Source: Escherichia coli (GTDB taxonomy: Bacteria > Pseudomonadota > Gammaproteobacteria > Enterobacterales > Enterobacteriaceae). Taken from it: a DNA stretch of 64,000 nt. Made by a program: the position numbers. The stretch lies in the NCBI RefSeq assembly GCF_045037415.1, contig NZ_CP173438.1. The stretch is one strand, 5' to 3'. Every line of letters begins with the position of its first letter. Position 1 is the first letter of the stretch. Below are positions 55,001-58,000 of the stretch, in pieces.

Positions 55001-58000
55001 TGTGGTGCTACGTGACAAGCTGGAGCCGTACTTTGCGGAAGGTCGTTACCAGGATGCGCTGGTCGAACTGGCTGAGCTGCGTGAACCGGTCGATGCTTTC
55101 TTCGATAAAGTGATGGTCATGGTTGATGATAAAGAATTGCGTATCAACCGTCTGACCATGCTGGAAAAACTGCGCGAACTGTTCCTGCGCGTTGCGGATA
55201 TTTCGCTGTTGCAGTAATAACGCCGTTATTAAAAAGCCTGCCATCTGGCAGGCTTTTTTTATCGCTAAATAATACAGCAACCTTTAATAATCTTCTGCTG
55301 AATAAAGATTATCTCATATATTAATTTTATGAGATTTTTTTAGGATTATATCAAGGAGAAGAAACGAACTTATTAAGCTGGAATAGCCACGGGTGCTTGA
55401 GGCTGTTTGTCTCAGGTATTCACCGAAAGGCAGACAGAGAAAAGCCCCACCTGACTATAAATCAAAGTGTACTGCACCCATTTTGTTGGACGATGAAATG
55501 GAATAGCCCCTAATATGTCAAAGCCAAAATACCCTTTTGAAAAGCGCCTTGAAGTCGTGAATCACTACTTCACAACTGATGATGGTTACAGGATCATCTC
55601 GGCACGTTTTGGTGTCCCCCGAACCCAGGTCAGGACATGGGTTGCCCTCTATGAAAAACATGGAGAAAAAGGTTTAATTCCCAAACCTAAAGGCGTTAGT
55701 GCTGATCCAGAGTTGCGTATTAAGGTCGTGAAAGCTGTGATCGAGCAGCACATGTCCCTTAATCAGGCTGCTGCTCACTTTATGCTTGCTGGTAGTGGTT
55801 CTGTAGCCAGGTGGCTGAAGGTCTATGAAGAGCGCGGAGAAGCTGGTTTACGCGCGCTCAAGATTGGCACCAAAAGAAACATTGCAATATCAGTTGATCC
55901 AGAAAAAGCGGCATCAGCATTGGAGCTGTCAAAAGACCGACGCATTGAGGATCTTGAAAGGCAAGTTCGATTTCTTGAAACGCGGCTTATGTATCTAAAA
56001 AAGCTGAAAGCCTTAGCTCATCCCACGAAAAAGTGAAAGTACTCAACGAGCTAAGGCAGTTTTATCCTCTTGATGAGCTTCTCAGGGCTGCGGAGATACC
56101 GCGCAGTACGTTTTATTATCATCTAAAGGCTCTCAGCAAGCCTGACAAGTATGCGGACGTTAAAAAGCGTATTAGTGAGATTTATCACGAGAATAGAGGC
56201 CGATACGGATACCGTAGGGTAACGCTGTCTCTTCATCGAGAAGGGAAACAGATTAACCATAAAGCTGTTCAGCGCCTGATGGGAACCCTCTCACTTAAAG
56301 CAGCGATTAAGGTCAAGCGATACCGCTCTTACAGAGGAGAGGTAGGGCAAACCGCCCCTAATGTTCTCCAAAGAGATTTCAAGGCTACGCGGCCAAACGA
56401 GAAGTGGGTTACCGATGTTACTGAATTTGCAGTCAATGGGCGCAAGCTGTATTTGTCTCCAGTAATAGATCTCTTCAACAACGAAGTTATTTCTTACAGC
56501 CTTTCGGAAAGACCAGTGATGAACATGGTTGAGAATATGCTCGATCAGGCATTCAAAAAGCTTAATCCTCACGAGCATCCTGTTCTGCACTCTGACCAGG
56601 GATGGCAGTATCGTATGAGAAGATATCAAAATATCCTTAAAGAACATGGTATTAAACAAAGCATGTCCAGAAAAGGCAATTGTCTGGATAATGCTGTGGT
56701 GGAGTGTTTCTTTGGAACCTTAAAGTCGGAGTGTTTTTATCTTGATGAGTTCAGTAATATAAGCGAACTGAAGGATGCTGTTACGGAATATATTGAATAC
56801 TACAACAGCAGAAGAATTAGCCTGAAATTAAAAGGTCTGACTCCAATTGAATATCGGAATCAGACCTATATGCCTCGTGTTTAACTGTCCAACTTTTTGG
56901 GGTCAGTACAAAGTGAGGCTACCCTATGCCTGAACACCATAAGGTTAGCCTCTTACTCGTTGGAAATCAACACAGGAGGCTGGGATGCCGCAGAAATATA
57001 GATTACTTTCTTTAATAGTGATTTGTTTCACGCTTTTATTTTTCACCTGGATGATAAGAGATTCACTGTGTGAATTGCATATTAAACAGGAGAATTATGA
57101 GCTGGCCGCGTTTTTAGCCTGCAAATTGAAAGAGTAAGAATCTTCGGCGGGAAGTTATTCCCGCCTTTCTTACGGCGTTACGCATTCTCATTACACCCAA
57201 ATTTATTCTTCACAAAAATAATAATAGATTTTATTACGTGACCGATTATTTATTTCCTGAAAAACAAATAAAAAAATCCCCGCCAAATGGCAGGGATCTT
57301 AGATTCTGTGCTTTTAAGCAGAGATTACAGGCTGGTTACGTTACCAGCTGCCGGGCCTTTAGCGCCGCTTTCGATGGTGAAGGACACTTTCTGACCTTCG
57401 TCCAGAGATTTGTAACCATCGTTCTGGATAGCAGAGAAGTGTACGAACACGTCTTTAGAGCCATCGTCAGGAGTGATGAAGCCGAAGCCTTTGTCAGCGT
57501 TGAACCATTTTACGATACCAGTCATTTTACCGGACATAGTGTATTACCTTTAATAATTAATTGTGCCTTTCGGCGATATGGCGTGCTTTACAGATTTTGA
57601 AGCGTTAAAGGAATGTGCACTACGAGGGGTATCAACGATAACTCTTGAAGGGACTTGCCTTACTACACTGCTTTAATGGTCTGTACGTCAAACCGTTGAT
57701 GTGCATTAAGCCACGCATTGGTGGGTGATGCAACAATTATTTTTCATATTTATGATTAATCGGTTGGAAAACGGTCCTGTTATCAGGACCGTAAACAGAA
57801 ATAAAGTGGATAAAAGCCTATTCCATCAACTGCTTACTTAATGCCGGGTTGGCTTGAATCAAACGCATCAATTTTAGTTCGGCACTTGAAGGCTTCACGC
57901 GTCTGGATTCCCATTCCTTTACCATGGCGACTGATACGCCCAAAACCCGGGCGAAATCATCGATTTTTAATCCTGTCCCTTTTCGTAACTGCTCAATTTC

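Follow-up and report, generated by a model that had tools for sequence, protein, structure and literature searches.

IS150, an insertion sequence (IS) of the IS3 family, is counted among the proven cases of stem-loop-stimulated −1 frameshifting (PMC4066793, citing Vogele et al., 1991), and programmed frameshifting is described as a requirement for the synthesis of its transposase (PMC8254509). The features of the IS150 group include consecutive, overlapping open reading frames (ORFs), the second of which is in the −1 frame, and an AnG motif within the overlap (PMC5771124). For the stimulators of the IS3 family, the rules given are a hairpin that starts 4–10 nucleotides (nt) past the slippery motif and a stem with an initial G-C pair and no fewer than three more pairs after it (PMC4066793). 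In this study we consider a complete, 1443-bp IS150 copy on the plus strand, at positions 55468–56910, of a 64,000-nt stretch of Escherichia coli DNA (contig NZ_CP173438.1, assembly GCF_045037415.1), which as a whole we call the window, and in particular the junction of the two ORFs of the element, orfA and orfB, where an earlier note on this DNA had placed a programmed frameshift signal. We believe that the site is almost certainly the programmed −1 ribosomal frameshift signal of IS150. This signal is already known and experimentally characterised, and the present result is a correct re-identification of it. According to what is said of the work by Vogele and colleagues, A_AAA_AAG together with the stem-loop, in a segment of 83 bp, suffices for frameshifting and about one third of the ribosomes shift; mutation of the stem-loop reportedly lowers shifting by ~80%, and expression of InsB is said to involve frameshifting as well.

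The coding part of the element consists of two plus-strand frames, defined here by the ORF list and Pfam. The first, orfA (insJ-type, 55515–56036), encodes a 173-amino acid (aa), 19.7-kDa product with a helix-turn-helix (HTH) DNA-binding part and stops at the TGA of 56034–56036, and the second, orfB (insK-type), annotated from a GTG and spanning 56033–56884, encodes 283 aa with a DDE catalytic domain. The −1 frame to which orfB belongs is open over a longer distance, from 55979, immediately after a TGA at 55976–55978, to 56884, where it ends with TAA. Because these two stops, that of the −1 frame at 55976–55978 and that of orfA at 56034–56036, bound the shared segment, the 0 frame and the −1 frame overlap by 58 nt (55979–56036). 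The slippery heptamer A_AAA_AAG is located at 55997–56003 on the plus strand, inside this overlap, and its computed phase relative to orfA is X_XXY_YYZ: the first base of the heptamer is the third base of a CTA codon (55995–55997), followed by AAA (55998–56000) and AAG (56001–56003), with 10 sense codons between the heptamer and the orfA stop. The earlier note had described an aaaaaag heptamer near the end of orfA with orfB in the −1 frame, and both statements agree with these positions.

Occurrence of the heptamer alone is uninformative, because AAAAAAG is present in 29 copies on the two strands of the window (15.4 ± 3.5 expected from dinucleotide-preserving shuffles), and such abundance might invite the thought that the copy at the junction is simply a chance occurrence, without a role, in an A-rich stretch coding for lysines. 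For each AAAAAAG we determined how far the 0 frame is open upstream, how soon the 0-frame stop follows and how far the −1 frame stays open. Among the 29 copies only the one at 55997 showed the configuration of a frameshift site, with 167 codons open upstream, the stop after 12 and 295 codons open in the −1 frame; this copy alone combines the needed phase with the needed ORF arrangement, it is followed by a stable and conserved hairpin, and frameshifting of IS150 is published. The likelihood of a meaningless coincidence at this position is, in our estimate, vanishingly small. The only look-alike AAAAAAG, at 18597, was rejected as a frameshift site, as it is an in-frame lysine pair within an ordinary 431-aa ORF.

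The heptamer is separated by a 6-nt spacer, CUGAAA (56004–56009), from a predicted stimulatory hairpin at 56010–56057 on the same strand, to which folding, conservation and RNAalifold all point. Its stem is a perfect 10-bp pairing between the 5′ arm GCCUUAGCUC (56010–56019) and the 3′ arm GAGCUAAGGC (56048–56057), and its 28-nt loop contains the orfA stop as well as the GTG at 56033. Folding of the 60 nt 3′ of the heptamer gave a single dominant hairpin with a minimum free energy (MFE) of −18.5 kcal/mol, compared to −8.8 ± 2.5 kcal/mol for shuffled sequences (z = −3.94), and none of 200 shuffles was as stable. With its 6-nt spacer and a stem that opens with G-C, the IS150 hairpin conforms to the IS3-family rules cited above. 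A search for a downstream stem-loop, which the earlier note had proposed as a check, thus led to a hairpin 6 nt past the heptamer that is conserved in diverged relatives. The range that the note had assigned to the signal, 55990–56040, includes the heptamer and the orfA stop, but of the hairpin it takes in the 5′ arm and not the 3′ arm, which ends ~17 nt further downstream.

As for other possible components of the signal, no GGAG, AGGA or GGGG that would suggest a Shine-Dalgarno-like enhancer was seen, by eye, in the 25 nt before the heptamer, TTGAAACGCGGCTTATGTATCT. We therefore consider the signal to be of two parts, heptamer and hairpin, and apparently not of three; because the enhancer is an optional component, its absence leaves membership in the general class of frameshift signals untouched. 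No Rfam family matched 55990–56060, even at E ≤ 1, and Rfam appears to be without a model for the IS150 frameshift element.

Relatives of the element were collected by a distant-mode plasmid search, and 8 sequences entered the comparison. The search yielded ISKpn8 (94.7% identity), an IS150 variant (98.8%), four elements of Klebsiella/Enterobacter (64–67%) and one Pantoea element, and the layout of orfA followed by orfB in the −1 frame is common to all relatives. A_AAA_AAG is kept in 7 of the 8 related elements. The spacer and both arms of the stem are almost invariant, whereas the loop is unalignable and, in the Pantoea element, 9 nt longer. Over the 8 relatives, 96.6% of the stem pair cells hold standard pairs, compared to 15–48% in controls with the 3′ arm displaced by 1–3 columns. 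One stem pair varies in a compensatory manner, as C-G, U-G or U-A, by substitutions that leave the amino acids of the orfB frame unchanged; the diverged group has gained an eleventh pair; and RNAalifold independently predicts the same helix in the alignment of the relatives.

These features also bear on the possibility that the shift takes place during transcription, with RNA polymerase adding an A on the A6 run and the resulting transcripts being translated in the normal way to OrfAB. Although a homopolymeric A run is present at the site, it is only 6 long, and efficient transcriptional slippage reportedly needs ~9 or more. The trailing G of the heptamer and the hairpin, both of them conserved and the latter placed at the 6-nt spacing of ribosomal signals, are features of a ribosomal shift and not of slippage by the polymerase, in which the hairpin would have no role. 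Transcriptional slippage is documented for some IS3-family elements, for example IS1447 (PMC6211511), whereas the literature on IS150 itself treats the element as a case of ribosomal frameshifting (PMC4066793, PMC8254509). We consider it very unlikely that polymerase slippage accounts for the junction.

Some of our results weigh against the assignment of a ribosomal frameshift signal, or at least against the strength of its structural support. When a 101-nt segment (55990–56090) was folded, it was not significantly stabler than its shuffles (z = −1.39), and the MFE structure of this segment pairs part of the slippery site; from the lack of significance over this longer segment it follows that the signal is local, and the fold was set aside for that of the 60 nt past the heptamer. 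The covariation score was reached by 10 of 500 shuffles, and with 8 sequences and 8 of the 11 pairs invariant the support that it lends is thin. In addition, the conservation of the stem possibly comes in part from protein constraints, because the 5′ arm is doubly coding.

A departure from the common heptamer was seen in the element of the Klebsiella michiganensis plasmid p8BG, where AAAGAAG stands at the heptamer site and an in-phase U_UUA_AAG is found 3 nt upstream (locus 716–740). The latter would sit 9 nt from the homologous hairpin, and it may be a substitute slippery site.

The transframe product expected from the −1 shift, OrfAB (55515–56884, plus strand), would be a transposase of 456 aa and 53.1 kDa according to translation, NCBIfam and RefSeq. 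It joins 55515–56003 to 56003–56884, so that base 56003 is read twice and the junction reads ...LMYLKK|AESLSS...; the predicted junction peptide is ...MYLKKAESLSSSHEK. Pfam places HTH_28 (E = 1.6e-23) and other HTH families within residues 10–130, in the OrfA part, while the OrfB part contains HTH_21, rve (E = 6.7e-29), rve_2 and rve_3. The DDE triad of the fusion is D301, D361 and E397, spaced by 59 and 35 residues and followed by a K at E+7, which conforms to the D(57–60)D(35)E pattern of the IS150 group with K/R shortly after E, and the fusion scores 414.7 bits with the NCBIfam model transpos_IS3, for which the cut-off is 160. In identical copies, that of K-12 among them, RefSeq gives the coding sequence (CDS) at matching coordinates as two joined pieces with the note ‘programmed frameshift’. 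Because the HTH resides in OrfA and the DDE domain in OrfB, DNA binding and catalysis come together in one chain only via the frameshift product. The earlier note had regarded the locus as fitting the OrfAB mechanism of the IS3 family, a view now backed by the phase, the hairpin, the HTH and DDE fusion and the RefSeq wording, and its claim that both frames are intact is likewise sustained, as they are free of stops and the fusion, with its HTH and DDE domains, matches the NCBIfam model of the IS3 transposase.

Let us consider, on the other hand, that orfB is translated alone, from the GTG at 56033 or from some other internal start, with OrfA and OrfB as separate proteins and the heptamer only incidental. 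This GTG does open the conventionally annotated 283-aa orfB, and separate OrfB products have been reported for IS3-family elements (PMC5771124). However, this start codon is within the loop of the hairpin, with no obvious Shine-Dalgarno motif seen before it by eye, and separate translation would leave the HTH in OrfA and the DDE domain in OrfB, so that the need of a functional transposase for both in one chain would go unanswered. The heptamer, the spacer and the hairpin are conserved among elements that are ~65% identical. Moreover, in ISSau2, which belongs to the IS150 subgroup, OrfAB is the transposase, while OrfA and OrfB reduce transposition (PMC5771124). Taken with the domain arrangement described above, these points make stand-alone translation an extremely improbable account of the locus.

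With programmed −1 ribosomal frameshifting as the preferred explanation, the events at the junction may be pictured as follows. Ribosomes translating orfA would arrive at A_AAA_AAG with lysyl-tRNAs on AAA in the P site and on AAG in the A site, and their advance would be hindered by the 10-bp hairpin starting 6 nt downstream. Some of the ribosomes would then slip one base back, with both tRNAs re-pairing on AAA AAA, and would continue in the orfB frame to produce the 456-aa OrfAB, in which the HTH part is fused to the DDE part; the ribosomes that do not slip would terminate 10 codons on, producing the 173-aa OrfA. The slip ratio would determine how much transposase is made relative to the shorter products. 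As judged from what has been published on IS150 and on the IS3 family, slippage would be highly efficient and OrfAB would be the active transposase. We found no sequence feature that speaks against the frameshift reading. The practical consequence is one of annotation: the two ORFs should be entered together, as a single transposase CDS that contains a programmed −1 frameshift, and neither as a pair of genes nor as a pseudogene. The site also makes a clean teaching example of a two-part bacterial frameshift signal. Beyond correct annotation, the frameshift signal itself is nothing new and of little import.

The limits and the identity of the element are clear. Alignment of 55468–56910 with IS150 of an E. 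coli K-12 derivative, the comparison to a reference that the earlier note had suggested, gave 100% identity over all 1443 bp with no disrupting differences; it is because of this identity that neither stops nor changes in the slippery site are present. Many further E. coli copies of IS150 are also 100% identical to the window copy over 1443 bp, and the RefSeq product name for the CDS of the element is ‘IS3-like element IS150 family transposase’. Among 5426 complete E. coli genomes, 2864 contain IS150 matches, and copies at least 99% identical were found in 3016 records. The left terminal inverted repeat, IRL (55468–55498, starting with TGTACTG), and the right one, IRR (56880–56910, ending with CAGTACA), both given on the plus strand, were recognised as an inverted-repeat pair and by direct comparison of the ends. 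They are imperfect repeats of 31 nt with 71% complementarity, lie 1381 nt apart and have TG...CA termini; the end sequences are TGTACTGCACCC... on the left and ...GGGGTCAGTACA on the right. A 3-bp target-site duplication, AAG, is present at both ends of the element (55465–55467 and 56911–56913), and removal of IS150 and one AAG restores a sequence that matches the uninterrupted site in strain SK1144 with 100% identity. The copy therefore combines the marks of IS150: full-length identity, TG...CA repeats, a 3-bp duplication, overlapping ORFs with AnG, and HTH plus DDE domains.

Judging from its intact ends and frames, its identity to the reference and the existence of identical copies elsewhere, it seems a reasonable inference that the window copy is transposition-competent. 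The identical copies are found at many chromosomal and plasmid sites, with target duplications that differ. Pointing in the opposite direction, most genomes that carry this exact insertion have a single IS150 copy, so that nothing suggests recent activity of the element in the lineage. We suggest that potential mobility be assumed for the copy. A 15-bp inverted repeat (56833–56867; 87% complementary, with a 5-nt loop), found where orfB ends and immediately inward of IRR, scores as terminator-like on the minus strand; it could be a block to outside transcription entering IS150.

The surroundings of the element are more interesting than the signal, as they bear on IS target choice and on the silencing of chromosomal type I toxins. 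IS150 lies between glyS and hokA, and it splits the hokA/sokA type I toxin-antitoxin locus into two parts (window 55391–55467 and 56911–57137). At the two junctions the Rfam sok model RF01794 reaches 89.3 and 43.9 bits, compared to 127.2 bits at the intact site of SK1144, and the hokA ORF (56985–57137, 50 aa), itself intact, has lost its connection to the leader upstream. The 2.2 kb around IS150 are 100% identical to genomes of O25b:H4/ST131 type, whereas the flanks in the window are 97–98% identical to K-12; the window thus derives from an ST131-like strain and not from K-12. Of the 5426 complete genomes, 901 have the exact arrangement of the window. With the joined flanks as the query (window 55218–55467 and 56914–57163), an uninterrupted hokA site was found in 2817 of the 5426; in the others the match breaks at query position ~246–252, which is the IS150 insertion point.

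Insertions at loci of this kind were seen repeatedly in a sample of 11 IS150/ISKpn8 copies other than the window copy, 8 of which are located in five distinct hok-type loci: hokA (in three genomes including K-12), hokB, the hok of R1/F-like plasmids (at two positions), a further plasmid hok and the hok of IncHI2 plasmids. In all eight, except K-12, IRR faces the toxin gene, and most of them stand 0–1 nt ahead of the GAGGC in mok's ribosome-binding site. The target duplications at the hok-locus copies are AAG, AAC, CCA, TTC and ACC, and because they differ we take the insertions to be independent events. Insertion at homologous positions in these loci, before the mok GAGGC, suggests a nucleotide-precise insertion hotspot. 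In its more specific form, the proposal is that IS150 and ISKpn8 have a precise preference for the hok leader, 0–1 nt before the mok GAGGC and at the foot of a GAGGC...GCCUC hairpin, usually with IRR toward the toxin; we give this a slightly better than even chance of being correct. By eye, the hok target region did not convincingly resemble the inverted repeats of IS150. If the proposal is true, IS150 would silence hok loci with near site specificity on E. coli chromosomes and plasmids, and the split hokA site in ~48% of complete E. coli genomes would reflect target preference and would not be due solely to common descent or to selection for loss of the toxin. The cause of the pattern at the hok loci may be target preference, selection, or both.

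The recurrence at hok loci is in part known already, since reports of laboratory evolution describe repeated IS150 insertions beside the hokC, hokE, mokB and ldr loci, which are called insertion hotspots (PMC5419217). Our literature searches for IS150 together with hokB or sokB found nothing. This insertion-site pattern is the only lead from the present analysis that might repay more work. Another copy, not among the eight, is also followed by TGAGGCT. A 100%-identical IS150 is present beside a further type I toxin gene, ibsA, in the ibsA-mdtA region of an E. coli chromosome; this copy is without a clean 3-bp duplication (GGG versus GCC) and lies in a GC-rich palindromic stretch (locus 380–420 and 1844–1900).

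Elsewhere in the window, three minus-strand matches lie above the Rfam gathering score, namely the cspA thermoregulator (57270–57697), which accompanies the cspA gene (ORF 57325–57537), naRNA4 (CssrE; 8854–8931) and the small RNA ES036 (CssrF; 21460–21502).

Lastly, we compare the locus with the known systems. The signals of IS911 and dnaX use the same heptamer and follow the same principle, the re-pairing of two lysyl-tRNAs under stimulation by a structure further downstream (PMC4066793). They differ from IS150 in having a Shine-Dalgarno-like enhancer, ~10–14 nt upstream of the heptamer, whereas none was seen for IS150 by eye in the 25 nt upstream. The IS3 signal belongs to the same family; its orfA and orfB are arranged likewise and an RNA structure lies downstream, but IS3 relies on a heptamer and a pseudoknot, and for IS150 no conserved pairing is apparent between the hairpin loop and downstream sequence. 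Because the loop is not conserved among the relatives, an IS3-type pseudoknot was set aside, although not formally tested, and a simple hairpin is the supported model.

ISKpn8 and the plasmid elements of Klebsiella, Enterobacter and Pantoea share with the window copy the layout, A_AAA_AAG (U_UUA_AAG in one), the spacer and a homologous stem of 10–11 bp. They differ from it in overall sequence (94.7% nucleotide identity for ISKpn8, ~65% for the others), in their unrelated loops, in compensatory or wobble changes within the stem, and in the position of the orfA stop, which is shifted within the loop. The closest system is IS150 of K-12 (insJ/insK), whose repeats, heptamer, hairpin and ORFs are the same as those of the window copy; the differences here are in the insertion and not in the element. 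Relative to glyS and hokA, the K-12 copy is in the opposite orientation. At its hokA site there is no target duplication (GTA versus AAC), unlike the clean AAG duplication of the window copy; 40 bp of the hokA leader (window 56914–56953) are missing beside the K-12 element, and the junction on the glyS side is one base off. The K-12 arrangement is consistent with a separate insertion that was followed by an IS-adjacent deletion.

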